Source: Chloroflexota bacterium (GTDB taxonomy: Bacteria > Chloroflexota > Anaerolineae > UBA1429). From it: a stretch of 23,024 nt of DNA. Made by a program: the position numbers and the translations under genes. Under the pieces are notes generated by a model, which was given only the letters and a program-made list of their open reading frames with translations, was not told the origin of the DNA and searched no databases. Where the stretch lies: NCBI GenBank assembly GCA_021372475.1, contig JAJFUJ010000114.1, positions 1-23,024 of the forward strand, written 5' to 3'. How positions within the stretch are numbered: position 1 is the first letter of the stretch; each line of letters starts with the position of its first letter. Shown piece by piece: positions 2-18,717 of the stretch.

Positions 2-262
2 TCCATCTTTGTGGATAACATGGAGGCCGCGGTGGCTGAAGGATGTTCCTGGGGCTTTTACTGCCAAGGATATGGCAGCCAGTACCGCGACCGCTCGGAT
101 TGGACCAGCCATCCGCGTGAAACCAACTACAACCAGCTCTCTGGTTACCAAACGCTGCCGGTAAACTGGGGCATTAACACGCCCGATAAACGCACCTTCT
201 TCGGCCGCCTGGCGAAGATAACTTCAGGGGATTCCTCGCATCCGGATAATCTTCTAGTCTAG
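2..262 (+). CDS. 3' end (C-terminal ~87 aa) of a gene that starts upstream of the window; hypothetical, W/Y/G-rich.
   Basis: The frame is open from the first bases of the window to TAG at 260-262. There is no recognisable motif. It overlaps the convergent stop of the next gene by 9 nt. Confidence 0.3.
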   Translation, partial: SIFVDNMEAAVAEGCSWGFYCQGYGSQYRDRSDWTSHPRETNYNQLSGYQTLPVNWGINTPDKRTFFGRLAKITSGDSSHPDNLLV

Positions 263-2233
263 AGGTGTTACCGTCACCGACTCGCCTGTAATCTCCACAT
301 TGAAAATCGGTAGAGCATCGTCCTGAACTTGCTGGCCAGCTCTGTCAACTGCCCCTAATCGATTCCCGCCTGCAACAGGGTACAAACCGACTTTAACTAT
401 ATACTTGCCCGAAGCTAGGTTCTCTGGGAGGGGTAGTATCCTGTAATCTCGCCATACATCGCCTGCCTCCCATTGTATAGGTCGGGACATATCCCTCAGA
501 GGGTACCCATCAGATTGAGCAACGAGCTGCCCCTGCTCGTTATAAAGATGCAAAAAAACGGTAACATCCTGAGATACTTGCCTCAAGCAATACCAGCGAA
601 GCTCAATTTGAATTGAAAACTTTTCGATCTCCCCGGATACAAGAGTCAGAGCTATCTGATCGGCAAAGCTGCCCAAAACAGGAGATACTACAGCCTGCTT
701 AACCTGCTCAAGTTCACCTACATTCCGTACTTGGATATCCTTTGTTTTGTAACCGACCTGAATTACCTTCTGGGCTTCCCGTTCAAGAGCTTGTATACTA
801 TCAAGTGATTCCTGCTTGCCTACACCCACATAATGATACCGCCAACTATGTTGCACATCAGGTAGAATCACGGCTTGTATATTCCGTTCCTCACCAGTCT
901 GCAACCACATCAAGTCCGTTAATGTGCTATAGTCAGGGACGATGGTGATGCCCTCATGCCCTAACTCATATGTGTTGCTTAAGGGGGCTAACCAGGCAGG
1001 AAAGTTTACAACCAAGATCGGCTTTTCGTCATCAGATGCCGTAGCGCTCTCTAGCTCAGCTACTGCCAAACGCATCTGCTCGTACATCGCCTGTCTCTCT
1101 CTAATAAAAAGATAGCTTGAGAGCCCAGAGCCAAACACCAGTAGAGCAGCTAAAATAGCACCGGTTATCCTTCTTGGTTGTGAATGCCAGTATAACTCAA
1201 TCGGAGTCGCCCAAAAGATAGCAGCCCCTAGTGATGCTGAGTACAAGAGCCGTGGACCGTCTATCACATAGTTAAAATCTAGCAACAAGCAAGCCGGCGC
1301 AATGCTTAGAACAAACCACCCTATTGAGAGAATTAACAATCTACTTAAGCCTGCTCTCCAGACCAGAATGCACCAGATTACAGTGAATGGAAAAACCGTG
1401 AGTATGATTGCCTGAAGATCAGTGACCTTCATGACCCGTGCAACCAGAGTGGCCAATGGGGCTATGGGATAAGCAAGCCCCTGAACAAAGTATATTATGT
1501 TCTGCCAAATCCGTTGTAAATCAAAAATATTGATGGATTTGGTTTGCTTTGGCACTAGCAGCCATATAGTGAATCCCAGGAAAGCTGTAAGCCAAAATGG
1601 CCAGGTCCTCTGGAGTATAGTGCGCAATTTGGGAGGGTTTTTATCCGTATATAGCACCAATGTGAGTAGGCCGGGTAGTAATACACCTGTCTCATGAGCA
1701 AATGGAGCCATAAACGAGAGAATATACGAAAGAAAGAGAAGTGTTTTTGAATTGCGTTTATAAGCCTTAAGAAATAGTAGTATGGCTCCAAGCATTATAG
1801 CTAGTACCAACGGATGAGTAAGAGAACCAATAAAAGGAATATTTTGATATGAGAAAGGATATAATATAAAGAGAACAGCTACAGCTACGCCAAATAAATC
1901 CTTCCTATAACTAACGCACTCATGGGCTAGTTTATATACAAGGACTGCGTTCAATAAATGCAGGAAAATATTCACGGCATGAAGTAAGGGAGCATAATAA
2001 TTCTTACAAATTAATACCAAAGATTTCCAAATAATAAAAGGAAGCGGTCTGTAATAACCAGGGGTTTGTGCTGAAGTTAGTATTGATATCCAGTTATGGG
2101 TACTTAACCAACGAAATTGGGTTATATCATCAAAAAAGAACGGTAGTCTTATGGAAAAACCATAAGCTATCCAAGTAATCATAGCCAGGAACGCGATAAT
2201 GATAATGTTCCTGATAACTTTTTTATAATACAT
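254..2233 (-). CDS. Polytopic membrane protein, GT-C-fold glycosyltransferase-like (PMT/ArnT-like). The N-terminal ~420 aa are multi-TM and the C-terminal ~240 aa are soluble.
   Basis: 659 aa ORF. Many hydrophobic segments. Acidic DD motif in the first loop (LPFFFDDITQF) and a YYRPL motif, typical of GT-C family 39/83 enzymes. Hydrophilic C-terminal domain. Markedly AT-rich codon usage relative to its neighbours. Confidence 0.5.
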   Translation of the reverse strand: MYYKKVIRNIIIIAFLAMITWIAYGFSIRLPFFFDDITQFRWLSTHNWISILTSAQTPGYYRPLPFIIWKSLVLICKNYYAPLLHAVNIFLHLLNAVLVYKLAHECVSYRKDLFGVAVAVLFILYPFSYQNIPFIGSLTHPLVLAIMLGAILLFLKAYKRNSKTLLFLSYILSFMAPFAHETGVLLPGLLTLVLYTDKNPPKLRTILQRTWPFWLTAFLGFTIWLLVPKQTKSINIFDLQRIWQNIIYFVQGLAYPIAPLATLVARVMKVTDLQAIILTVFPFTVIWCILVWRAGLSRLLILSIGWFVLSIAPACLLLDFNYVIDGPRLLYSASLGAAIFWATPIELYWHSQPRRITGAILAALLVFGSGLSSYLFIRERQAMYEQMRLAVAELESATASDDEKPILVVNFPAWLAPLSNTYELGHEGITIVPDYSTLTDLMWLQTGEERNIQAVILPDVQHSWRYHYVGVGKQESLDSIQALEREAQKVIQVGYKTKDIQVRNVGELEQVKQAVVSPVLGSFADQIALTLVSGEIEKFSIQIELRWYCLRQVSQDVTVFLHLYNEQGQLVAQSDGYPLRDMSRPIQWEAGDVWRDYRILPLPENLASGKYIVKVGLYPVAGGNRLGAVDRAGQQVQDDALPIFNVEITGESVTVTPLD

Positions 2234-2248
2234 TAATATTCCGAATTA

Positions 2249-2842
2249 TTAAACAGTTACGATGGGTTTTAAAATGCGCATGGACTGCACTATATGTTTA
2301 TAGAGTGGCTCTATCTTAATGATCAACACACATGAAATCAACCGATCCAATCCCTGACGTATAAGGCTTCGCACGGCGATTGGATCTATCTGATATACGA
2401 TGATAACGGCTGCGATAAAGATGGCCCCTGCCAGGAATCTGGTGTAGCGACCGCGTGTGCGAATCAATAAGATGAGCGCGCACACGCCCAATAATGTAGG
2501 CATGACCACTTTTACATCGCCGAGCGGCACAGTTTGGCCAGCCACTATGGTGCTATCCGTTCCCAGGATTTTACTAAGGTCAAGGTTAATATCGAACCAG
2601 ATTAACACGATGCTACCGATAAGCAGCACCAACATCGCCCATGAGGCCCAGCGGGTGGTTTCTCCGGCGGTGCGGTACACTTCGTAGCCGACCAATGGCA
2701 GCATCAAGATTATTCCCCACACTATCTGGCCGCGTAGATAGCCAATGATAAGCCCTGCGGCTGCAATGAGGATGACAAAGACGCTTATCAGACCGGCATA
2801 TTTCCAAGGACGGGCGGCGTGCTGAGTGTGCCTGGTGCGCAT
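2249..2842 (-). CDS. Hypothetical integral membrane protein (~5 TM), likely co-transcribed with the downstream GT-C gene.
   Basis: 197 aa ORF with several hydrophobic helices. Its stop lies 15 nt before the start of the GT-C gene on the same strand. Confidence 0.45.
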   Translation of the reverse strand: MRTRHTQHAARPWKYAGLISVFVILIAAAGLIIGYLRGQIVWGIILMLPLVGYEVYRTAGETTRWASWAMLVLLIGSIVLIWFDINLDLSKILGTDSTIVAGQTVPLGDVKVVMPTLLGVCALILLIRTRGRYTRFLAGAIFIAAVIIVYQIDPIAVRSLIRQGLDRLISCVLIIKIEPLYKHIVQSMRILKPIVTV

Positions 2843-4399: not shown

Positions 4400-4436
4400 T
4401 GCATCAAACGGTAAAATCAGGCGTATAATATAGGGT
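4400..4436 (+). promoter_or_regulatory. Candidate sigma70-type promoter for the flotillin-like gene, with a TATAAT -10 box at 4424-4429.
   Basis: A perfect TATAAT lies ~35 nt upstream of the ATG at 4465, followed by the SD GAAAGGAG (4452-4459). The -35 is weak (gcatca). Confidence 0.3.
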
Positions 4437-4464
4437 GTTGATGTATCGAGAAAGGAGCTACGTT

Positions 4465-6501
4465 ATGAACCCAGCCACTATTTGGTACATTGTGCTTGGT
4501 GTCGTCGTGCTCTGGTTGATAGCTTCGACCGTGCGTTTCATCCCCAACAACCGCATTGGGGTGGTAGAGAAACGTTTTGCCGGGCGAGGCTCTGTCAAGT
4601 CGGGATTTATTGCGCTGCACGGCGAGGCTGGTTATCAGCCCGATATCCTGCGCGGCGGTCTGCACCTCCTCATGCCTTTTCAATATCGTGTGCAGATCAT
4701 GCAGTTGATAACAATTCCGCAGGGCAGTATCGGCTATGTGTTTGCCCGCGACGGTGAACCACTGGAGCCCGGGCAGGCCCTTGGGCATGTAGTGCAGTGT
4801 AACAACTTTCAGGATGTGCGTGCTTTTCTGCAAAACGGCGGACAACGCGGACCGCAACGCAGCATCCTGCGTGAAGGTACCTATGCCATCAATCTGGCCC
4901 AGTTCGCAGTGATCACTCAGGACGGCGTTAACACACTGCAGCTTGAACATGGGGAAGCCATTACCTTCAGCCGTATGGCCGAGATCATCGAGGAGCGTGG
5001 TGGATTCAAACCGATCATCATCCGCGGCTCGGATGACGTGGTTGGCATCATCACCGTTCACGACGGCCCTTCGCTGCCACAGGGCGCCATAATCGCACCG
5101 ACGGTCGGCGACCAAGTAGGCGAGCCGGATACTTATCACAATAACTTTCAGGATCCTGAAGCGTTTCTGCGCGCCGGCGGTCTGCGCGGACGCCAGTATC
5201 AGGTGATTGTCGAAGGCACCTACTATATCAACCGGCTGTTTGCCACGGTTGAACTGATCCCCAAAACAATCATCGATGTCGGCTGGGTCGGCGTGGTGGT
5301 ATCGTATACCGGCGAGGCCGGGCGTGACCTCTCGGGTGAGGACTATAAGCATGGCGAGCTGGTGCTGCAGGGCGAGAGGGGCGTCTGGAACCTGCCGCTT
5401 ATGCCCGGCAAATACGCCTTCAACACATATGCCGGTAAGGTTATTGCCGTCCCAACGACCAACTTTATCTTAAAGTGGGTGCGGGCTGAACAGGGCGTGC
5501 ATGGCTATGACGCGAACCTGGCTGAGGTGAATCTGATTACCAAAGACGCCTTTGAGCCGGAACTGCCGCTTTCCGTGGTGGTGCACATCGATTACCGCAA
5601 AGCGCCGCTGGTGATTCAACGCTTTGGCGATATCAAACGCCTGGTAGAACAGACGCTCGACCCGATGGTAGCCGCCTATTTCAAAAACATCGCCCAAACG
5701 CGCACGCTCATTCAATTGATTCAGGAGCGCGGCGAGATCCAACGTATCGCTTCATCTGAGATGAAGGAAAAGTTCCTGCACTATAACCTGGAATTGGAAG
5801 AGGTGCTAATTGGCACACCGCTAGCACACGAGGGTGATAAGAATATCGAGACCATCCTCACTCAACTGCGTTCGCGCCAGATAGCCGAAGAGCAAGTGCA
5901 GACTTATGCCCAGCAGGAAAAGGCGGCTTTCAAGGAGCGCGAGCTGCGCGAGGTTGAGGCGCGCGCGCGCCAGCAGCAAGCGCTGACCGAATCGGAAATC
6001 GGCATCAGCATTCAATCGAACCAGGGTAAGGCTGAATATCAGCGCGCCATCCAACAGGCTGCGCAGATTCGTACGCTAGCTGAAGCTGAGGCCGAAAAGG
6101 TGGCTCGCGTGGGTATCGGCCAGGCCCTGGCTATTCAGGAGCAAGTGGATGCCTACGGTGGACCACGTTATCAGGTAACACAAACGGTGATGAATCGCTT
6201 TGCTGAAGCCATCGAGAAAAGCCGGATTGAGATGGTGCCGCGTGTGCTGATCTCTAGCGGTAAGGAAGGCGGCGGTGGAGGCACTGGCTCCGTTTTGGAG
6301 GCATTGCTGACTATGCTATTGACCGAGCAGATGGGCGAGCCAATTACCGCCGAACGAGGAGCAAGTTCTTCGGAATATGCTCAAACGCTGAAAGAGCAAA
6401 TCCGCTCCAGCCTGGCCGCAAAAGCGCCGACTCAGCCGGATACCGGTAAACCGGATACAACCAGTATGCCGACTGCACAAGGCTCTACAAGCAACAAGTA
6501 G
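4465..6501 (+). CDS. Flotillin-like SPFH/band-7 family protein (YqiK/FloA-like) with an N-terminal TM anchor and a C-terminal coiled-coil flotillin region.
   Basis: Start chosen at the ATG at 4465 because of its GAAAGGAG SD; the ORF track begins at 4435. One N-terminal TM (IWYIVLGVVVLWLIA). NNRIGVVEKRF SPFH signature. E/A/Q-rich coiled-coil segment (EEQVQTYAQQEKAAFKERELREVEARARQQQAL...), then a Gly-rich and Pro/Thr-rich tail. Confidence 0.8.
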   Translation: MNPATIWYIVLGVVVLWLIASTVRFIPNNRIGVVEKRFAGRGSVKSGFIALHGEAGYQPDILRGGLHLLMPFQYRVQIMQLITIPQGSIGYVFARDGEPLEPGQALGHVVQCNNFQDVRAFLQNGGQRGPQRSILREGTYAINLAQFAVITQDGVNTLQLEHGEAITFSRMAEIIEERGGFKPIIIRGSDDVVGIITVHDGPSLPQGAIIAPTVGDQVGEPDTYHNNFQDPEAFLRAGGLRGRQYQVIVEGTYYINRLFATVELIPKTIIDVGWVGVVVSYTGEAGRDLSGEDYKHGELVLQGERGVWNLPLMPGKYAFNTYAGKVIAVPTTNFILKWVRAEQGVHGYDANLAEVNLITKDAFEPELPLSVVVHIDYRKAPLVIQRFGDIKRLVEQTLDPMVAAYFKNIAQTRTLIQLIQERGEIQRIASSEMKEKFLHYNLELEEVLIGTPLAHEGDKNIETILTQLRSRQIAEEQVQTYAQQEKAAFKERELREVEARARQQQALTESEIGISIQSNQGKAEYQRAIQQAAQIRTLAEAEAEKVARVGIGQALAIQEQVDAYGGPRYQVTQTVMNRFAEAIEKSRIEMVPRVLISSGKEGGGGGTGSVLEALLTMLLTEQMGEPITAERGASSSEYAQTLKEQIRSSLAAKAPTQPDTGKPDTTSMPTAQGSTSNK

Positions 6502-6512
6502 CATATCAAAAC

Positions 6513-6540
6513 AGAGGGGGGCATATTGAATGCCCCCTCT
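6513..6540. terminator. GC-rich hairpin between convergent genes, likely a rho-independent terminator, best fitted to the minus-strand GH gene.
   Basis: agaggggggcat (6513-6524) pairs with atgccccctct (6530-6540) around a 5 nt loop, with one G bulge. On the minus strand it is followed by GTTTTGATAT. The plus strand has no T-tract. Confidence 0.6.
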
Positions 6541-11849: not shown

Positions 11850-13316
11850 ATGAGCACACCAATCGTGATTCATCCGCAGAATCCAAAGCTATTTCTGTTT
11901 CGCGGTAAGCCCCGCGTGCTGTTGACCGCTACCGAGCATTATGGGGCAGTCATAAATCGCCCTTTCAACATGGCGCGCTACCTTGCCGATGCAGCCGAGC
12001 ATGGGATGACGCTGACGCGCCTGTTTATGCTCTTCCGCGAGCAGCAGTCTCCACAGAATCCGTACTCCACCTGTAAACCGGAGAGCACCGACTATATTAC
12101 ACCCTTTTTGCGCATAGGCCCTGGTAAAGCCACCGACTGGCTGCTAAAGTACAATCTCGATTGCTGGAATCCCGAGTTTTTCCAACGCCTGCACGCATTC
12201 CTGGGATTGGCCAGCGAGCACGGCATCATCGTCGAGGTTACTTTGCTTTCCAATACCTATGGCGAATCCGTATGGGCGCTCAACCCCCTGTATCACGACA
12301 ACAATATCAACGGGCTGGATAAAATCCCCTGGGCAGAGTATATGAGCCTGCGCCACCCCCGCCTGGTGGAATATCAATTGCGTCATGTGCGTAAAATCGT
12401 GACTGAGATCAATCCTTATGATAACGTCATCCTTGAGGTATGCAATGAGCCCGGCGGCTTCAGGCAGGAACCGCAATTCCCTACCCCTGAGGAAGTGAAT
12501 GCCTGGCAAAAAGTGATAATCGATACCATCCGCGAAACGGAGAGTGGTCTACCCAATCAGCATCTCATCAGCGGGCAGGAGGCCTTCACCTACGACCCCT
12601 TTACCCAGACATCAGATGCATCGTTCGCGGACATGAATTTCGATATCATCAACATGCACCCGCTGCCGGGAACAGTGTACCACGGTGCTACCTACGATAT
12701 GGGCAACTTTATGTCGGCTGAGCTGAACCTGCAGGCTGTGCGCGACTATGCCCTCGCCACATACAACGAACCCAAGCCGATGAACTATGATGAGGATAAC
12801 TGCGCCTCGCGCTTCCGCGACCAAACAGGCTGGACTATACACCGCAAGCGCGCCTGGGTGACGCTGCTCTCGGGCGGGCACTATGACCTGATTGATTTCT
12901 CAATTCAGTGCTATCTGGAGGCAGGCACGCCGGAAGCCAACCGCTATTTACGCACCTGGTTCAAGCATCTTTCAAACTTTATCCACCGTTTGGATTTGGC
13001 GCGCTGCCGCCCGATTTCCGGGCTAATCGCCGGGCAGCCCGACCATACGCTCGCGGCGTGCTATGGGATACCCGACAGCGATTATGTCATCTACCTGGCG
13101 GATTCCCGCGAACTGGATGATTACGGTGCTGGTAAACCGATCGGCGGCGAGTTGACGCTGAATCTGGAGCCGGGCGGCTATCGGATGTACTGCTATTCGC
13201 CCGTCAGCGGCATGGCGTCGCCCGGTATCTGGATTCAAGCCGAGGGGCAAACCAGCCTGGCGGTGCCGGAATTCGAGCAGGATATCGTCCTTCGCGTTGC
13301 ACGCGAACGCCACTAA
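11850..13316 (+). CDS. Clan GH-A (GH5-like cellulase-superfamily) glycoside hydrolase.
   Basis: 488 aa with SD GGAGGA. Conserved LEVCNEPGG (NEP acid/base motif of GH5-type TIM barrels). No signal peptide is evident. Confidence 0.55.
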   Translation: MSTPIVIHPQNPKLFLFRGKPRVLLTATEHYGAVINRPFNMARYLADAAEHGMTLTRLFMLFREQQSPQNPYSTCKPESTDYITPFLRIGPGKATDWLLKYNLDCWNPEFFQRLHAFLGLASEHGIIVEVTLLSNTYGESVWALNPLYHDNNINGLDKIPWAEYMSLRHPRLVEYQLRHVRKIVTEINPYDNVILEVCNEPGGFRQEPQFPTPEEVNAWQKVIIDTIRETESGLPNQHLISGQEAFTYDPFTQTSDASFADMNFDIINMHPLPGTVYHGATYDMGNFMSAELNLQAVRDYALATYNEPKPMNYDEDNCASRFRDQTGWTIHRKRAWVTLLSGGHYDLIDFSIQCYLEAGTPEANRYLRTWFKHLSNFIHRLDLARCRPISGLIAGQPDHTLAACYGIPDSDYVIYLADSRELDDYGAGKPIGGELTLNLEPGGYRMYCYSPVSGMASPGIWIQAEGQTSLAVPEFEQDIVLRVARERH

Positions 13317-13327
13317 CTCTTTAAGCA

Positions 13328-14167
13328 TCACCAGTCTACGGCAGGGGTACGCTCCAGGTCCAAGGCAAAATCGACATCCTCATCCAGCCACTCCGCCGCG
13401 CGGGGAGAGCCGGATGTGCCGGCGCGTTCACACAGCGTGCGGTAAGCGCAGGTTATGCAATATTCCTGCCGCTCTGTCTTGGTAAACGCTTCTTCGGGCG
13501 CGCCGGCGATCTCCTCTGCCAACTCAGTGAGCAGCACACGGTCATCCTCCAGATTGGCGCGGCTGTAGGGGATATACACTGTTGCCTCAGGCTCATTGGC
13601 GAACCAGTAACACATCTCGATGCGTTCCGGCGCCACGGGTGCGCCCTGGGTAAGGATGTTGCCAGCGCAAGCCAGCATATAACAATAAATACGTGTCTGC
13701 AGCCGAGTACGCAGCGTTTTGAGGGAGGGCACAGCCTGCAGTGTTTTCCAGTCCACTATCACAGCGCGTCCCTCGCGCTGCAGGGCAATCAAATCGTAGC
13801 GCGCGTACAGGCGGTACGCCCCCAGCCCGATAGTCAGCGGGTATTCTGACAGAAGCACTTCATGTGGCAACAACGCGTAATCGAACGACTTCCAGGCCGA
13901 CCACCAGGATTGCAGCAAGGGATCGTCCGTTGCGTTCACCTGTAAATCAACCGGCAGGCCGAGTTGAGCGCGTTCGAGCCAGCGGTGAAAGATAACACCG
14001 CGCTGCAGATGCTGCTGATACTCGAGGGGCTGTTCGCCCTCGGCCATCGGCCATGGTTGGCGCTGCACATATCTGAGCCAAAAGCGCCGTTTGCAGCGCT
14101 GGTAAGTGCTCAGGCTGTGCTGGCTTAACTGAAAACCCGCAGGCAAGTGATTCGCCGCAGCGCTCAT
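13328..14167 (-). CDS. Cas4/AddB-type PD-(D/E)XK (RecB-family) nuclease with a predicted 4Fe-4S cluster; third gene of the helicase operon.
   Basis: N-terminal Cys in YQRCKRRFWLRY. C-terminal C-x2-C-x5-C (CITCAYRTLC). RecB-family motif II RYDLIAL, motif III IVDWKT and QxxxY motif (LQTRIYCYML). The preferred start at 14167 has a GGAGG SD and sits 1 nt after the TGA stop of the upstream helicase; an alternative ATG is at 14191. Confidence 0.7.
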   Translation of the reverse strand: MSAAANHLPAGFQLSQHSLSTYQRCKRRFWLRYVQRQPWPMAEGEQPLEYQQHLQRGVIFHRWLERAQLGLPVDLQVNATDDPLLQSWWSAWKSFDYALLPHEVLLSEYPLTIGLGAYRLYARYDLIALQREGRAVIVDWKTLQAVPSLKTLRTRLQTRIYCYMLACAGNILTQGAPVAPERIEMCYWFANEPEATVYIPYSRANLEDDRVLLTELAEEIAGAPEEAFTKTERQEYCITCAYRTLCERAGTSGSPRAAEWLDEDVDFALDLERTPAVDW

Positions 14168-14168
14168 G

Positions 14169-16385
14169 TCAGGCGCCTCCGGCGATAGCATACAGTGCTA
14201 GAGGCAACCGTACGGGTCGTTTGCCACTAGTCCCGGCATACGAGATATATAGGTCGCATCTGGCTCGGGTGATGGCTACATAAAGCAGCCGCAGGCGCTC
14301 CGCGATCTGTTCCCGGCGCGAGTGCTGCACCAGCGCCGGCACATCCTGCTGGATGCCCGTAGCCGACATGAGTTGTTCCAGCACTGCACTTGTCTCCAGC
14401 TCCGGCGCACGTTCCTGCATATAGTAAGGTTCGCTGCGAAAGACGTCGTCGCTGGTATCCGGGAATTCCAGGGTATCAACACAAATGAGGTACACCACGT
14501 CCCACTCCAGCCCCTTGGCTTTGTGCATCGTTGTGACGGCGGTGCGGCCGGCGCGCGGTTCATAGCCCGCATCTACAAAAGCGATTTCCGCCAAGCTGCG
14601 TTTGTTCTGTGCAATTTGGGATAATTCGGCGGCGTATTCCCCCAGGCGCCACTCCGGATGGATTTGCCAGAGCGAACGCAGACGGCCGGCCAGGACATGG
14701 GTAATGGCCAGATCGCCTTCCGCCCGAAACAAGTCCTGCGCAATGGTCAGCACCAGTTGATCGGCCGGCAGCACCACTGCCCTGAGCCAGCGGGCGGCGA
14801 GTTCCACAAAACGGGCGAGCAGCGGGAGTTCTTCGGGCAGCGGCCGAGCCTGCGCCGGCAGACTCTCATACCAGAGCTCGGCCTGCGTCGGGAAAAAGAC
14901 CTGCTCCGGCGGGGCGGAAGCAACTAACGTCTTTTGCGCGCGCAGCCGGAACCCGGCCTGCGCCTCACCCAGGTATCCGCCTTTAGCCAGCGTCTCATAC
15001 AGTGCAGCCTGGCTGCTCACGCTGGGTTTATGAAGAAAAACGAGTACCTTCTCCAGGACGCCGGTCACATGGCGGGTTTGAGGGGTTGAACGCAGCAGGT
15101 CATCGAAAGGGGGCTTCGGCGATATCTTTGCGAACTCGTTCACGACCACCGCCCCCTGCTTATTGGTGGGGCACAGGATGGCCTGCGAATAGCCCGGATG
15201 CCGCCTACCGTAGTCAACCGCCTTCGTTACTACCCTGTTTGCCAGAGTTTCAAGGTCAGGGAAAGGCTCAGTTATGATACGCACGTGACTCTCTTCTGCT
15301 GGCGGATTGGGCTGCGGATCTCCAACACGCGTCGGCAGGATATCCTGTTCCTCGAAAGCGATACGTCGAATCTCGTCTTCGGGGTGCTGCTGGCACACCC
15401 AATGCACAAGCGAATTGGCCAGGTTGATAATCGGGCTTGCGCTGCGCCCCGATTCCGGCAGCGCGCAGGTCTTGACAACAGGGTCAGCCAAGAAGCGTCT
15501 GAAAAAGAGCGGGTCGGCGGTGGTAAAGGTGGCGTTGATCGATTGATTCGGGTCGCCCATCCGCACCCAGTTGCCATCCTCGCCGGCCAGGCAGCGCAGG
15601 ATGGTCTCCTGCAGCGGGCTGCTGTCCTGGGCTTCGTCCTCCAGGATAAACGGCCAGCGCCGTCTGAGACCTTCCGTATAGCTAGCGTCCTCGTCCAGCG
15701 CATCGATGGCCCGCCAGATGAGGTCGTCGAAATCCAGCGCATTTTGCGTGCCCAGGTAGTTTTGGTAACCGGCGTACAGCTCCAAACCGATCAAAGCGAT
15801 GTCATGCGTAATGCCCACCTTACGGGCCTGGATGCGGGCCTGCTCCGGCGTAAGCCGCAGGTGTTTGCAGGCTTTGACGGCTGCCAGACCTATTTTCCTG
15901 GTCTGTTCCTGCCAACTGGTCCGCGCGTTGCGGTTGTCATCAGGGATAAAGCTGCTCCAATAAGCAACGTGTCCGGCAACCCAGGTATTTACGGCGTGGG
16001 TCATCAAGCTATCTCGCTCAGCATCATCAATAATCACGAACGCGTCCTCCACGCCGGCTATATCGTTGCGGATACGCAGGATATCGGCCGCGAGGCGATG
16101 CAACGTGCATACATGGTAGCCGACAGGCGGCAGCCCCTGTGCCTGCAGGATGGCCTTGATGCGTCGCGAGATATTATCCACCGCCGAGTTCTGCACCGTC
16201 ACTACCAGCACTTCGCCTTCTTCGCCCAATTTGCCCTCGATAATGAGCCGGGCAGCCAGAAGCGCCAGCGTGAGCGTCTTGCCGGAACCGGGCACCGCTG
16301 AGACGCCCATCAGCCCGCCCTGGTAAGCGAGGATGGCGCGCTGATGCTCGCGCAGTTGATAGCCATATAATTCGGATGATGTCAT
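14169..16385 (-). CDS. UvrD/Rep/PcrA-like SF1A DNA helicase with all motor motifs and no nuclease domain.
   Basis: 738 aa. Motif I AVPGSGKT, Ia TVQNSAVDNI, Ib CTLHRLA, II LEDEAQD, III GDPNQSINATFTTADP, V TTMHKAKGLEWDVVYL, VI VAITRARCDLYISY. The ORF ends right after motif VI. Confidence 0.8.
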   Translation of the reverse strand: MTSSELYGYQLREHQRAILAYQGGLMGVSAVPGSGKTLTLALLAARLIIEGKLGEEGEVLVVTVQNSAVDNISRRIKAILQAQGLPPVGYHVCTLHRLAADILRIRNDIAGVEDAFVIIDDAERDSLMTHAVNTWVAGHVAYWSSFIPDDNRNARTSWQEQTRKIGLAAVKACKHLRLTPEQARIQARKVGITHDIALIGLELYAGYQNYLGTQNALDFDDLIWRAIDALDEDASYTEGLRRRWPFILEDEAQDSSPLQETILRCLAGEDGNWVRMGDPNQSINATFTTADPLFFRRFLADPVVKTCALPESGRSASPIINLANSLVHWVCQQHPEDEIRRIAFEEQDILPTRVGDPQPNPPAEESHVRIITEPFPDLETLANRVVTKAVDYGRRHPGYSQAILCPTNKQGAVVVNEFAKISPKPPFDDLLRSTPQTRHVTGVLEKVLVFLHKPSVSSQAALYETLAKGGYLGEAQAGFRLRAQKTLVASAPPEQVFFPTQAELWYESLPAQARPLPEELPLLARFVELAARWLRAVVLPADQLVLTIAQDLFRAEGDLAITHVLAGRLRSLWQIHPEWRLGEYAAELSQIAQNKRSLAEIAFVDAGYEPRAGRTAVTTMHKAKGLEWDVVYLICVDTLEFPDTSDDVFRSEPYYMQERAPELETSAVLEQLMSATGIQQDVPALVQHSRREQIAERLRLLYVAITRARCDLYISYAGTSGKRPVRLPLALYAIAGGA

Positions 16386-16394
16386 AGTGGCATT

Positions 16395-18575
16395 CTAGAT
16401 AGGGTTGTTGTTCTGTGAATACAAGAGAGCATTCTGCAAGATACGTTCCAAACGCCCCGATTGCTCCTCGCCGTTGATGCCCAGCTCGCTCGAGACCAGG
16501 AAAATTCCTCCGCTGCAGCGGGCAGCCAGGCCTATCAGTACCCGACCGAGCCCCTCGCGGCGCGCCTGATCCTCGTCAGCATCATACCAGATGCGCCCCG
16601 TTTGCCAGGCACGCGAGAGGACGTAAGGTTGCGTAAGCGGTTGGTTGGGACGGTTCCACCAGCCGTCAACGCGCAAGTCGCACCAAAACTGGTAGCGCGA
16701 GCGCAGCCCCCGAGTCAGATACGCAAAAGCCGGAGCCAGAATCACGGCATCGAGCGCCTCGTCCAGACGGTCCTCGATGTATTCGGCGCTTGCCAGGCCG
16801 TTGAGCACAAAAGCAGTATATATAGCGCCCGGATCATCTGCGACCGAGAAGCCACCGGATCCAGCACCTGCACTACCGGCTAGGCGGAACTTGAGAGCAG
16901 ATTCAACCAATCGGCTGTAGCTGTGAGCCAGATCCGCGCGCAGATAGAAGCCGTATCCAGGCAAAGTTAACAACTCGCCAAAAATCTGTGATAAAAAGAT
17001 ATCCAGTGGCTGCTGCTCGCGACCGGCATAGTCAGCCAGCCAGGTACGCAGCGCCTCGTAGCGCTCGCGCAATTGGAAGCCGAGACGCTGCCAGAGCATC
17101 CCGGCCTGGGCTGCGGTCGCCTGAACCTGACCGGATAGGTCAGTCAGAGCCATATTCCCCTGGGGCAGCGCAGATTCGGCCAACAACCGCGCCCTTACCG
17201 GGTCCAGATTGGCCAGCATGACTCCGAGCATCTCGGCCAGGTCCTCGACCGGCAACGTCCTGAGCACCGCTTCTGAGCTTGCCCATGTGGGGTGGGCCAA
17301 ACGAGCGAGAGTCAAGCCAGCACGCACAATCACATCATCGCGCAAAGGGGTAGCGGGACGCAGCAAGTATTGGCCAATCCCCCTTTCGTGCAATTCCTCC
17401 TCAAGGGCAAAGCGCATCACCTCGCTCACATAAGGGGCAACCACGGCAATTTCGCCCGGCGCGCAGCCTGCCTCCACCAGATGAGCAATCTCGTTGGCGA
17501 TCCAGCGAATCATTCCTACCCAGTAGCGTTCGCTACGCTGCCCGAGCACAGCCCGACGCGCATCTCCCACCGCAGATATATTAGCCTGAGGCAGGTGCAT
17601 AACCGAACACACCCTGTTTGCCAAGGTGAGTATATCAGGGTTTATGCCCGGCAGGCTATCCATGCGCAGCTCCTGAGAGCAACGTTCTCCCAGGTTGCGA
17701 GCTGCCTGCCGGTCGGCTCCTAAAAAGATTCTGTATCCGCCACCTTCATCTTCAGCCAGCACAGAGGAAGCGCATAAGGGCTGTAGCCAGGCGATATAAT
17801 CGCTGGCCACCGGCACGGTTTCCTCGATGTTATCGGCGATCAAGTGCCGCACATGCTCTGCTAGATATGTTTTGTATGCCCGGCTGGGGTAGATTAACTC
17901 CACAAAGAGCTGAGTTGTCAGTGAGAGGTCCAAAAGCGAGTGCGCCAGACAGTATGCGCGAAAACGCATAGCGCAGTCCTGCGCCTGCTGATAGCTGGCG
18001 TAACGGTGTTCGCTGCCGGCCCAGGCTGATATCAGCCGGCTTGCTATCTCCTGGGGAGCAAAGCCGACCAGCGCCGATTTGTTCAAATTATCGATGAGCT
18101 GCGAAAGAAGCCGTTCGCGACGGATGGTGATATCCGCAAAGTAGCCATTTTCCTGGACAAGGGGCTGCAAGATACGCGCCATATGATACTGGGTGCTCTC
18201 CACGTTCATAAAAGTCGGCTCCAATTCGGGGTGCTTGAAGCCGGCGGAACCCGACACCAGTGGCCAAAATAGCGCTACAGCGCGCTGGCAAAGGCCATAG
18301 AAAGTGGTGATAGTCACACTACCGTTGATAAACCATGTAGAATGCGCCAACGCCTGCTCAAAGGTCTCTCTTTGCGATCTGTCGCTGACGAGTACCAGGA
18401 TTTGGTCAGGCCGAACCCCCTCTTTAATCAACGCCAACATGCGTGCGACCAGCGCAGTAGTCTTGCCGCTGCCGGCCAGACCGTGGACCCACAGGCCATT
18501 ACCTCCCTGTTTTGGGAAGTCTACTACTATTCGTTGTGTTTCTATTAGGTCAGTATAGTTTGAAGCTATTATCAT
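16395..18575 (-). CDS. UvrD-family helicase-like protein with intact Walker A but degenerate catalytic motifs (AddB/RexB-like non-motor subunit candidate); first gene of the operon.
   Basis: 726 aa. Motif I GLAGSGKT and a TFH-like ITTFYGLC are present. The motif II position reads LIADNIEET instead of DExQD, and motifs III, V and VI are poorly recognisable (GADRQA, GLAARCSGGIF). Its stop is 9 nt before the start of the next helicase. Confidence 0.65.
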   Translation of the reverse strand: MIIASNYTDLIETQRIVVDFPKQGGNGLWVHGLAGSGKTTALVARMLALIKEGVRPDQILVLVSDRSQRETFEQALAHSTWFINGSVTITTFYGLCQRAVALFWPLVSGSAGFKHPELEPTFMNVESTQYHMARILQPLVQENGYFADITIRRERLLSQLIDNLNKSALVGFAPQEIASRLISAWAGSEHRYASYQQAQDCAMRFRAYCLAHSLLDLSLTTQLFVELIYPSRAYKTYLAEHVRHLIADNIEETVPVASDYIAWLQPLCASSVLAEDEGGGYRIFLGADRQAARNLGERCSQELRMDSLPGINPDILTLANRVCSVMHLPQANISAVGDARRAVLGQRSERYWVGMIRWIANEIAHLVEAGCAPGEIAVVAPYVSEVMRFALEEELHERGIGQYLLRPATPLRDDVIVRAGLTLARLAHPTWASSEAVLRTLPVEDLAEMLGVMLANLDPVRARLLAESALPQGNMALTDLSGQVQATAAQAGMLWQRLGFQLRERYEALRTWLADYAGREQQPLDIFLSQIFGELLTLPGYGFYLRADLAHSYSRLVESALKFRLAGSAGAGSGGFSVADDPGAIYTAFVLNGLASAEYIEDRLDEALDAVILAPAFAYLTRGLRSRYQFWCDLRVDGWWNRPNQPLTQPYVLSRAWQTGRIWYDADEDQARREGLGRVLIGLAARCSGGIFLVSSELGINGEEQSGRLERILQNALLYSQNNNPI

Positions 18576-18588
18576 ATGAATTTAAGTG

Positions 18589-18597
18589 GATTATAGC
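18589..18597 (-). promoter_or_regulatory. Extended -10 promoter element (TGcTATAAT) driving the helicase-helicase-nuclease operon, with a very short or leaderless 5' UTR.
   Basis: Minus strand reads ccagttgTGcTATAATccacttaaattcatATG. The TGnTATAAT sits ~13 nt before the ATG at 18575 and there is no SD upstream of that ATG. Confidence 0.35.
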
Positions 18598-18635
18598 ACA
18601 ACTGGAACGCAAATGGGATTACTGGGGGAGCCTGA

Positions 18636-18674
18636 GGAGCAAAACACAAACCGTATCATGGGGCGATACGGTTT
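18636..18674 (-). terminator. Rho-independent terminator of the lipoprotein gene, insulating it from the helicase operon.
   Basis: Perfect inverted repeat AACCGTATC / GATACGGTT (18648-18674) with a 7 nt loop. On the minus strand it is followed by TTTGTGTTTTGC. Confidence 0.5.
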
Positions 18675-18717
18675 GTGAATGCTGAATTCAAAAAGGTATG
18701 CTACTCGAGTTATCAGT

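Follow-up and report, generated by a model that had tools for sequence, protein, structure and literature searches.

A conserved Chloroflexota operon of a pseudo-helicase, a UvrD-like helicase and a stand-alone RecB-family nuclease, most likely a three-piece form of the DNA-end-trimming machines

Introduction

Three tightly spaced genes on one strand of a Chloroflexota contig, here called g1, g2 and g3, raise the question of what two UvrD-like proteins and a RecB-family nuclease do together. Bacterial recombination is framed by RecBCD, AddAB and AdnAB together with the RecQ/RecJ route. In the Anaerolineae, an abundant class of sediments, digesters and the subsurface, the recombination machinery is to our knowledge essentially uncharacterised, and literature searches returned nothing specific on the trio or on double-strand break (DSB) repair in this class. 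In one survey, ~12% of genomes contained none of RecBCD, AddAB or AdnAB (PMC6452273). The original prediction for the window (the whole stretch analysed, 23,024 nucleotides from a Chloroflexota MAG contig) proposed a split AddAB/AdnAB-like machine, with a defence role as an equally open possibility. The analysis presented here indicates that the trio is most likely an undescribed three-piece form of the DNA-end-trimming machines and not an anti-phage system.

Results

Locus layout and control elements

The following features were located in the window:

16395..18575, minus strand: g1, 726 aa, pseudo-helicase of the UvrD/Rep fold
14169..16385, minus strand: g2, 738 aa, motif-complete SF1A (UvrD/PcrA-like) helicase without a nuclease domain
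13328..14167, minus strand: g3, 279 aa, stand-alone RecB-family (Cas4/AddB/AdnAB-type) nuclease
18590..18598, minus strand: TG-c-TATAAT, extended -10 promoter-like element read from the sequence, putative promoter
18645..18677, minus strand: terminator-like hairpin in the sequence, 14-bp stem followed by TTTTG
14176..14180, minus strand: GGAGG, Shine-Dalgarno sequence of g3, within the 3' end of g2

The sequence agrees with the predicted reading frames, strand and spacing. The g1 stop codon TAG (16397-16395) is followed by a spacer of 9 nt and the g2 ATG at 16385, and the g2 stop codon TGA (14171-14169) is separated from the g3 ATG at 14167 by a single nucleotide, the 'c' at 14168. The GGAGG of g3 lies 8 nt before its ATG, and this stop/start geometry suggests translational coupling from g2 to g3. 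Homologues favour the start at 14167, giving 279 aa, over an upstream ATG at 14191. Spacers give way to overlaps of 8 and 14 nt in L081, a distant relative. Homologue E-values for the trio genes were as low as 0, and the three are therefore real, strongly conserved genes and not chance reading frames.

The operon had also been predicted to carry its own extended -10 promoter, and the TG-c-TATAAT element at 18598-18590, 14 nt from the g1 ATG, is a plausible candidate. It is absent from the list of the consensus scanner because no -35 box qualified in the region upstream of g1. No Shine-Dalgarno sequence was found upstream of the g1 ATG, and the leader would therefore be very short if the promoter-like element is used. 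Further upstream, the terminator-like hairpin (18677-18645) would end the preceding minus-strand unit and set the 5' boundary of the operon. SOS-type boxes (GAAC-N4-GTTC) were not detected in the window, even when one mismatch was allowed. Upstream of g1 in related loci, the exact box occurs in just 4 of 75, and allowing one mismatch gave an enrichment of ~2-fold. SOS regulation was rejected as a general trait of the operon.

g1 is a pseudo-helicase with a complete UvrD/Rep fold

Fold searches assigned to g1 a complete SF1A fold with all four domains of the UvrD/Rep type, and the Pfam UvrD-helicase model matched its N-terminal part only (5e-9). The protein retains the Q-motif and Walker A (GSGKT), and its motif II reads D248-N249, D-N replacing D-E. 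This combination, which had been predicted from the single sequence, is a family trait, since among 231 relatives K38 is found in 220, D248 in 214 and N249 in 208, with Glu outside the four commonest residues at position 249. DxGGYRxFLGAD stands in place of motif III, and motif IV is lost, its Arg being absent. The family has its own invariant blocks (IDNLNKSALVGF and WWNRPNQPLTHPYVLSR), E251/E252 are invariant as well, and a mean column identity of 50% shows strong constraint. We infer that g1 binds nucleotide without hydrolysing it, while a slow ATPase activity may be retained via E251/E252.

The top fold matches of g1 include AdnA, AddB and RecB; the structurally nearest proteins are Rep, PcrA and UvrD and not AddB or RecC. 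AddB was not among the 60 best listed matches in a profile search against the PDB, and only two relatives gave a borderline ADDB_N match, confined to the P-loop region. Homology to AddB or RecC was rejected, as neither was singled out by the fold searches, and the analogy between g1 and AddB may be convergent.

g2 is a motif-complete helicase of no assigned equivalog

The second gene product matches Pfam UvrD-helicase (1e-39) and UvrD_C (3e-18). Across 58 orthologues, motifs Q, I, Ia, Ib, II (DEAQD), III, IV, V and VI are each at least 90% conserved, and the protein ends ~20 aa past motif VI with no nuclease domain, in line with the original description. The best sequence match in the PDB is PcrA (8e-18). 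Equivalog scores are all far below their cut-offs (PcrA 128 against 911 bits, UvrD 99.5 against 1144, Rep 110 against 951), and the same holds for the RecB and AddA models; g2 thus belongs to the UvrD/PcrA/Rep superfamily only and to none of its equivalogs. From its motifs, g2 is predicted to be a 3'-5' motor.

g3 is a stand-alone nuclease of the putative Fe-S type

Pfam PDDEXK_1 matches g3 at 1e-27. The predicted four-cysteine arrangement is present as C25 followed by C237-x2-C240-x5-C246, and an alignment of 24 diverse homologues shows no variation at C25, C237, C240, C246, E108, D125, D139, K141, Q157 or Y161. The cysteine pattern points to an Fe-S cluster. Foldseek searches with an AF2 model of g3 (pLDDT 84.7) returned ACE1 (2e-8), the AdnA nuclease domain (TMq 0.59) and then Cas4, Exo5, AddB and RecB, so that all three families proposed for comparison (AddB-C, Cas4 and Exo5) were recovered; the likeness of fold extends to the nuclease domains of AdnA/AdnB, AddB and RecB, and to Cas4. 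Tail statistics describe a disordered, acidic and conserved C-terminal tail with an aromatic last residue. Membership of the CRISPR-associated Cas4 proteins is not indicated: scores were below cut-off for both TIGR00372 (24.1 bits, cut-off 65) and Pfam Cas_Cas4 (18.7 bits, cut-off 22.7), and the window contains no cas1, cas2 or other cas gene and no repeat array.

The trio is a class-wide operon that usually includes recJ

Relatives of g1 form 613 clusters at E<1e-30 in the representative search and were found in at least 574 species genomes, the records being almost all from Chloroflexota and nearly all from Anaerolineae and their allies, including the cultured Anaerolinea thermolimosa. Among the 62 informative loci, that is, those with enough downstream DNA, 43 have the order g1-g2-g3 on one strand, 12 more retain the g1-g2 pair and seven have g1 alone; g3 is not nearby in 12 of the 62. 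The genes thus do co-occur as a trio, against the possibility, raised with the original prediction, that orthologues might never be found together.

Neighbourhood clustering identified g1, g2, g3 and recJ (DHH/DHHA1/RecJ_OB) as the only recurrent genes. In 26 of 42 loci recJ lies directly downstream of g3, and in 30 of 42 it is within the locus on the same strand; the window and the loci most closely related to it (L001, L002 and L004) lack this adjacency. Some loci contain extra reading frames between g1, g2 and g3, with sizes and sequences that differ by lineage. A fourth conserved subunit encoded in the gaps was rejected, since these insertions vary by lineage and only recJ recurs. Pairwise divergence is strongly correlated among the four genes (r = 0.85-0.95 overall; g1-g2 0.95, g1-recJ 0.90, g3-recJ 0.89), and g1 does not evolve faster than recJ. 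The trio has one copy per locus and a class-wide, core-gene-like spread, and the operon is inherited throughout Anaerolineae-type Chloroflexota, most likely vertically.

The conserved layout bears directly on the possibility that the trio is an ordinary addAB or adnAB pair broken up by a frameshift or by mis-assembly, an explanation suggested by the MAG origin of the contig and by a parts list that resembles AddAB cut up. The same three reading frames, with the same sizes, were found again in dozens of independent assemblies, among them that of an isolate. All of the 150 best g1 representatives are at most 775 aa, the g3 homologues listed are 188-322 aa each, i.e. of stand-alone size, and homologue searches found no fused g1-nuclease or g3-helicase forms. 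With the AddA and AddB equivalog models the scores are 17-72 bits, the cut-offs being 700-860. Because the split state is kept in hundreds of genomes without fused forms, the trio is not an assembly or frameshift product of addAB; the frameshift explanation, which the original prediction had named as a possible undoing, was rejected and its probability is negligible.

Defence genes do not recur around the trio

UvrD-like helicases and a PD-(D/E)XK nuclease could also degrade invading DNA as an anti-phage module, in the manner of Gabija or of UvrD-Cas4 fusions. RecBCD itself acts in both repair and defence, g2 matches the GajB models in PADLOC at 1e-41, the best fold E-value of g3 belongs to the Argonaute-associated Cas4-like ACE1, and UvrD-Cas4-like fusions occur in defence contexts (PMC5704561). 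The GajB score of g2, however, is the same as the one it obtains with the generic Pfam UvrD model, and there is no GajA. PADLOC gave no matches among the neighbours in the window, which are metabolic genes, and neighbourhood clustering of 81 loci revealed no recurrent defence gene near the trio. Relatives are absent from the 2.9 million viral contigs of IMG/VR. The class-wide spread, the single copy per locus and the divergence that follows recJ are also unlike those of patchy, horizontally moving islands. The empty PADLOC result on the neighbours, the lack of a recurrent defence gene and the empty viral-contig scan led us to reject a defence island as the leading reading. A defence role, once held to be equally open, is now highly improbable.

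Discussion

A proposed DNA-end-processing machine

We consider it probable (roughly 60%) that g1, g2 and g3 are subunits of one housekeeping DNA-end-processing helicase-nuclease of Anaerolineae and allied Chloroflexota that works in an AddAB/AdnAB-like manner; that the three proteins form a complex and that it acts on DSBs is inferred from their genes and neighbourhood. The substrate would be DNA ends at double-strand breaks, or at forks that have collapsed or reversed, destined for RecA-dependent repair. In such a machine g2 would be the ATP-driven 3'-5' SF1A motor and g1 its helicase-shaped partner, which would still bind nucleotide but lacks the catalytic Glu as well as further motifs for hydrolysis and coupling. 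The role of g1 would probably be that of a scaffold, end-binding or strand-guiding subunit, possibly sequence-sensing, a part comparable to that of AddB, RecC and, partly, AdnA in known machines. As the sole nuclease, g3 would act as an Fe-S 'iron-staple' enzyme of the RecB family recruited in trans, probably via its conserved acidic C-terminal tail. RecJ, a 5'-3' ssDNA exonuclease that is co-transcribed in most lineages, would help to remove the 5' strand, so that RecA could load on the remaining 3' tail. This end-resection reading is strengthened by the recJ linkage (26/42), by the co-divergence of the four genes and by their core-gene-like spread across the class, although the link to recJ is equally compatible with DSB resection and with other pathways of excision or fork processing.

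The genes may instead form a repair operon without a stable AddAB-like machine, in which a free UvrD/PcrA-type g2 feeds RecJ in RecFOR-type resection, or serves mismatch/excision repair or stalled-fork processing, with g1 and g3 as loose accessories that share regulation only. The recJ linkage of the trio loci agrees with such an arrangement, as do the proximity of the g1 fold to ordinary Rep/PcrA/UvrD, the unlinking of g3 and g2 from g1 in some loci, the unrelated genes inserted among the trio in others, and the UvrD and RecJ model for Deinococcus (PMC2806897). It accounts poorly for the g1-g2 co-divergence (r = 0.95) and the adjacent or overlapping position of these genes in most loci, for the coupling of the g3 start to the g2 stop, and for the strong constraint on a g1 devoid of its catalytic residues, a pattern typical of an obligate partner subunit. 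We therefore regard it as unlikely and prefer the dedicated end-processing machine.

In a more specific form of the preferred reading, which we put forward tentatively and at somewhat below even odds, a heterotrimer of an SF1A motor, an ATP-binding but hydrolysis-dead UvrD-fold subunit and an Fe-S nuclease would represent a fourth architectural class beside RecBCD, AddAB and AdnAB. An SSB-tip-like acidic tail would recruit the nuclease in trans, and the complex would work with co-transcribed RecJ and replace the canonical machines in Anaerolineae and their allies.

If the preferred reading is true, the trio would fill part of the gap left by genomes without known end-processing machines and show how such machines are assembled or disassembled in evolution. 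It would also provide a natural test system for the contributions of an inactive helicase subunit and a nuclease tether, which could be separated because the nuclease and its tail form a protein of their own. In addition, it warns that pairs of UvrD-like and Cas4-like genes should not be annotated as defence by default.

Comparison with known systems

The trio does not qualify as an AddAB, AdnAB or RecBCD. From Gabija it differs in that its helicase is not encoded next to a GajA ATPase-TOPRIM nuclease. With RecBCD it has in common three subunits, a single nuclease and an inactive helicase-like protein, RecC there serving as scaffold and Chi scanner; orthologues of RecB, RecC and the SF1B helicase RecD are not among its products. 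AdnAB consists of two motor-nuclease subunits, each with its own nuclease domain. Neither g1 nor g2 has one, the trio has a single nuclease gene, and its similarity to AdnA/AdnB is remote. Moreover, AdnA retains its ATPase motifs, whereas g1 has D-N at motif II.

Stand-alone Fe-S nucleases beside unfused UvrD-like helicases in a non-defence context are also known from solo Cas4 and Cas4-like (pfam12705) proteins. Hudaiberdiev et al. (2017) suggested a repair role for a solo-Cas4/UvrD-like operon in Clostridiales and reported a monophyletic solo-Cas4 in many Chloroflexi (PMC5704561); a second, degenerate helicase and a recJ linkage are not part of that description. In Deinococcus radiodurans, which lacks RecBCD and AddAB, UvrD and RecJ are proposed to make 3' tails (PMC2806897). 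The combination resembles the trio, whose helicase genes share an operon with recJ in most lineages, but the Deinococcus UvrD is an ordinary one, and a pseudo-helicase partner or a dedicated Fe-S nuclease is not described there.

Of the original proposal of a split AddAB/AdnAB-like machine, the parts list, the coupling geometry and the genuineness of the split stand, while membership of AddAB or AdnAB does not. AddAB is made of two polypeptides and the trio of three; AddAB has two nucleases and the trio one, its motor g2 being without a nuclease domain. g2 is not an AddA, as it has no such domain and scores 72 bits with TIGR02785 (cut-off 707.65) and 60 bits with TIGR02784 (cut-off 860.75). 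In AddB a helicase-like region is fused to the Fe-S RecB nuclease at the C-terminus of one polypeptide, whereas in the trio the nuclease is the separate protein g3, the g1 fold is closer to Rep/PcrA than to AddB, and recJ is usually in the operon. The likeness lies in the pairing of a single active 3'-5' motor of the SF1A type with a subunit of helicase shape in which Walker A is present and the hydrolysis motifs are not. AddB likewise keeps its Walker A site with the other helicase motifs missing, and this site binds ATP without contributing to the motor and stabilises Chi binding (PMC3064778); the g1 family has the same inactive, Walker A-only character. The likeness to AddAB extends to a RecB-family nuclease with a Cys...CxxCx5C cluster, the putative iron staple of one N-terminal Cys and a C-terminal CxxCx5C being carried by g3 as a separate protein, and to a predicted role in end resection.

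Organization of the operon

ORF calls and the sequence itself confirmed the predicted run of three consecutive minus-strand genes in the window, with spacers of 9 nt and 1 nt:

16395-18575, minus strand: g1, pseudo-helicase, ORF of 726 aa
14169-16385, minus strand: g2, motif-complete SF1A helicase, ORF of 738 aa
13328-14167, minus strand: g3, stand-alone RecB-family nuclease, ORF of 279 aa

The TAG stop of g1 (16397-16395) is followed after 9 nt by the g2 ATG at 16385, and the TGA stop of g2 (14171-14169) after one base by the g3 ATG at 14167. No obvious Shine-Dalgarno sequence precedes g2, while g3 has a GGAGG located within g2, 8 nt 5' of its ATG. In alignments, g3 homologues matched the 279-aa version and not a start at the upstream ATG at 14191. 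The three genes are thus arranged as a putative translationally coupled unit. Upstream of g1, a 14-bp hairpin with a T-run (18677-18645) closes the preceding unit, and the extended -10 element of the original prediction was read as TG-c-TATAAT at 18598-18590, a putative promoter of the operon. Because this box lies only 14 nt ahead of the g1 ATG and no Shine-Dalgarno sequence is present, g1 may be translated from a leaderless or very short-leadered mRNA (18573-18598). On the downstream side, a glycoside-hydrolase-like gene runs towards g3, and its stop lies 11 nt from the g3 end.

Properties of the three proteins

Pfam searches assigned UvrD-helicase (1e-39) and UvrD_C (3e-18) domains to g2 and detected no nuclease domain, and PcrA was the top PDB sequence match (8e-18). 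The full set of SF1A motifs expected for this protein was found, with the Q-motif and motifs I, Ia, Ib, II (DEAQD), III, IV, V and VI each at least 90% conserved in 58 orthologues. Against the PcrA, UvrD, Rep, RecB and AddA equivalog models, scores were far under the cut-offs. As the motifs are complete, the nuclease domain is absent and all equivalog cut-offs were missed, g2 is a distinct clade of SF1A helicase, predicted to be active. At one related locus (L007), the g2 orthologue gave a split tblastn match (5534-5736 and 6434-6526), and the ORF over its 3' part starts with a PAARNGL repeat insertion, possibly an insert of the 2B region particular to that lineage.

Only an N-terminal UvrD domain (5e-9) was found by Pfam in g1, and its AlphaFold model (pLDDT 88.9, pTM 0.87) shows a complete four-domain SF1A fold. 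Retention of Walker A and replacement of the motif II D-E by D-N, as proposed for g1, held across the family: the Gln of the Q-motif is retained among 231 full-length relatives, as is the Walker A Lys (K38 in 220 sequences), and N249 is present in 208, Glu being outside the four commonest residues at this position. In profile alignments, D248-N249 fell on the D-E both in UvrD and in g2. In the same relatives, DxGGYRxFLGAD stands in place of motif III, and the motif IV region has no conserved Arg. The family is strongly constrained (mean column identity 50%) and has invariant blocks of its own. These residues point to a subunit that would bind nucleotide and hydrolyse it poorly or not at all, although some activity might conceivably be restored by E251/E252, which are invariant. 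In structure comparison, Rep/PcrA came closer to the g1 fold than AddB or RecC did, and an AddB-like role may therefore be convergent.

The third protein matched PDDEXK_1 (1e-27), and its predicted nature as a RecB-family nuclease with a cysteine cluster was borne out in 24 diverse homologues, where E108, D125, D139, K141, Q157 and Y161 as well as C25 and C237-x2-C240-x5-C246 are invariant. Binding of an Fe-S cluster is accordingly predicted. The model (pLDDT 84.7) gave its best TM-score, 0.59, to the AdnA nuclease domain and also resembles the Argonaute-associated Cas4-like ACE1 (E 2e-8), Cas4, Exo5, AddB and RecB; the top PDB sequence match of the g3 profile was the AdnB nuclease domain (3e-3). 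The C-terminal tail (13328-13420, minus strand) is disordered, with pLDDT <50 past about residue 250, and strongly acidic (median net charge -10 across the last 35 aa). The last residue is Y, F or W in 136 of 145 homologues (P0121-P0208, P0356-P0413), preceded by E/D in 79% and, before that, by I/L/V in 92%. We take this [ILV]-[DE]-[YFW]-COOH tip to resemble that of SSB. The tail could serve as a non-covalent tether to g1/g2 or RecJ.

Distribution and linkage to recJ

When GTDB species were scanned with one genome each, at least 574 stretches encoding g1 relatives were found, overwhelmingly from Anaerolineae/Anaerolineales. Further carriers were cultured Anaerolinea thermolimosa, a Thermoflexus hugenholtzii MAG, Thermoflexales, Limnocylindria and Phototrophicaceae, and a few records were labelled outside Chloroflexota. 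The g1 contigs of L018, L022, L028, L065 and L080 come from MAGs labelled Arcobacter, Thermotogae, Pleurocapsa, Spirochaetia and Roseobacter (the Spirochaetia-labelled contig is 4.8 Mb), and probably represent Chloroflexota DNA that was binned or labelled wrongly. An exhaustive representative search returned 613 g1 clusters at E<1e-30; the best 150 of these are all <=775 aa and thus include no g1-nuclease fusions. All g3 homologues among the matches listed are of stand-alone size (188-322 aa).

Of 62 loci with at least 3.3 kb downstream, 43 carry g1, g2 and g3 within 10 kb, 12 g1 and g2 only, and seven g1 alone; in all but one of the 43 (42 loci), g3 shares the strand of g1 and g2. That the trio is an artefact is exceedingly improbable. 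Unrelated genes are sometimes inserted inside it: a near-identical ~760-aa multi-pass membrane protein between g1 and g2 in L019 and L044, a shared 450-570-aa protein, peptidase-like by eye, at the same place in L021, L042 and L058, and a different 761-aa protein between g2 and g3 in L064.

The key new result is the linkage to recJ. Neighbourhood analysis over 81 loci, as proposed with the original prediction, revealed this linkage and no recurrent defence gene; unbiased clustering of all ORFs gave g1, g2, g3 and recJ as the only recurrent genes. A recJ of 750-790 aa (DHH, DHHA1, RecJ_OB) lies directly 3' of g3 on the same strand, 15-517 nt off, in 26 of 42 trio loci (including L007, L017, L022-L025, L027, L030, L034, L039, L052, L055, L056, L060, L061, L063-L065, L068, L069, L072 and L081), and is present on the same strand of the locus in 30. 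In L081, a distant member, overlapping g1, g2 and g3 are followed at once by a 767-aa DHH/DHHA1/RecJ_OB gene (13041-15344). L001, L002 and L004 are the nearest relatives of the window and, like it, have no adjacent recJ. In 26 genomes the pairwise divergences of the four proteins correlate (r = 0.85-0.95), and g1 diverges no faster than recJ.

Four of 75 loci have an exact, LexA/Cheo-box-like GAAC-N4-GTTC palindrome upstream of g1 (L001 at -60, L004 at -29, L021 at -76 and L058 at -82, counted from the g1 start; background 0.005 per 330 nt); the window has none. With one mismatch, enrichment is only about 2-fold.

Genomic context

The trio has metabolic or otherwise ordinary neighbours in the window (glycosidase-like, HpcH aldolase, Ldh_2, peptidases, LysE, rubrerythrin and methylase genes), among which PADLOC gave zero matches. 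The window contains no tRNA, Rfam match or repeat array, and no g1 relatives were found in 2.9 million viral contigs. The evidence is consistently against a mobile or defence origin; a defence role, originally held equally open, is on these grounds very unlikely.

Elsewhere in the window, a low-GC stretch (254-2842, minus strand; 0.39-0.45 versus 0.55-0.60 in the rest) with ORFs of 659 and 197 aa lacking Pfam, NCBIfam or PADLOC matches possibly represents foreign DNA inserted at the edge of the contig. Within 4417-6501, a plus-strand 688-aa SPFH/Band_7 ORF (4435-6501) overlaps a 311-aa minus-strand ORF without domain match (4417-5352), probably a shadow ORF.

Proposed function and relation to known systems

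The best explanation of the trio is a housekeeping machine that processes DNA ends, because a motor, a pseudo-helicase and a nuclease are coupled, co-inherited with each other and in most cases accompanied by a recJ gene. Here g2 would be the active motor, with presumed 3'-5' polarity, g1 a constrained pseudo-helicase retaining its nucleotide-binding site, and g3 the single, predicted Fe-S nuclease, with the 5'-3' exonuclease RecJ usually encoded alongside. We put the probability of a dedicated three-subunit repair helicase-nuclease at roughly 0.6; a looser repair association, forming no stable complex, is a distinctly less probable alternative.

Membership in AddAB, AdnAB or RecBCD was rejected, since motor and inactive subunit both lack a nuclease, only one nuclease is present, there is no SF1B partner and every equivalog model was failed by a wide margin. 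By analogy, the trio would work like AddAB, where the Walker A site of AddB aids stable Chi binding and not motor activity (PMC3064778). Together with recJ, it echoes the UvrD and RecJ resection proposed for Deinococcus, which is without RecBCD/AddAB (PMC2806897). The only specific literature found was Hudaiberdiev et al. (PMC5704561), who reported a monophyletic solo-Cas4 in many Chloroflexi and an unfused UvrD-like and Cas4-like operon, mostly in Clostridiales and in non-defence contexts, for which repair was suggested. Neither the degenerate second helicase nor the recJ linkage was described there.
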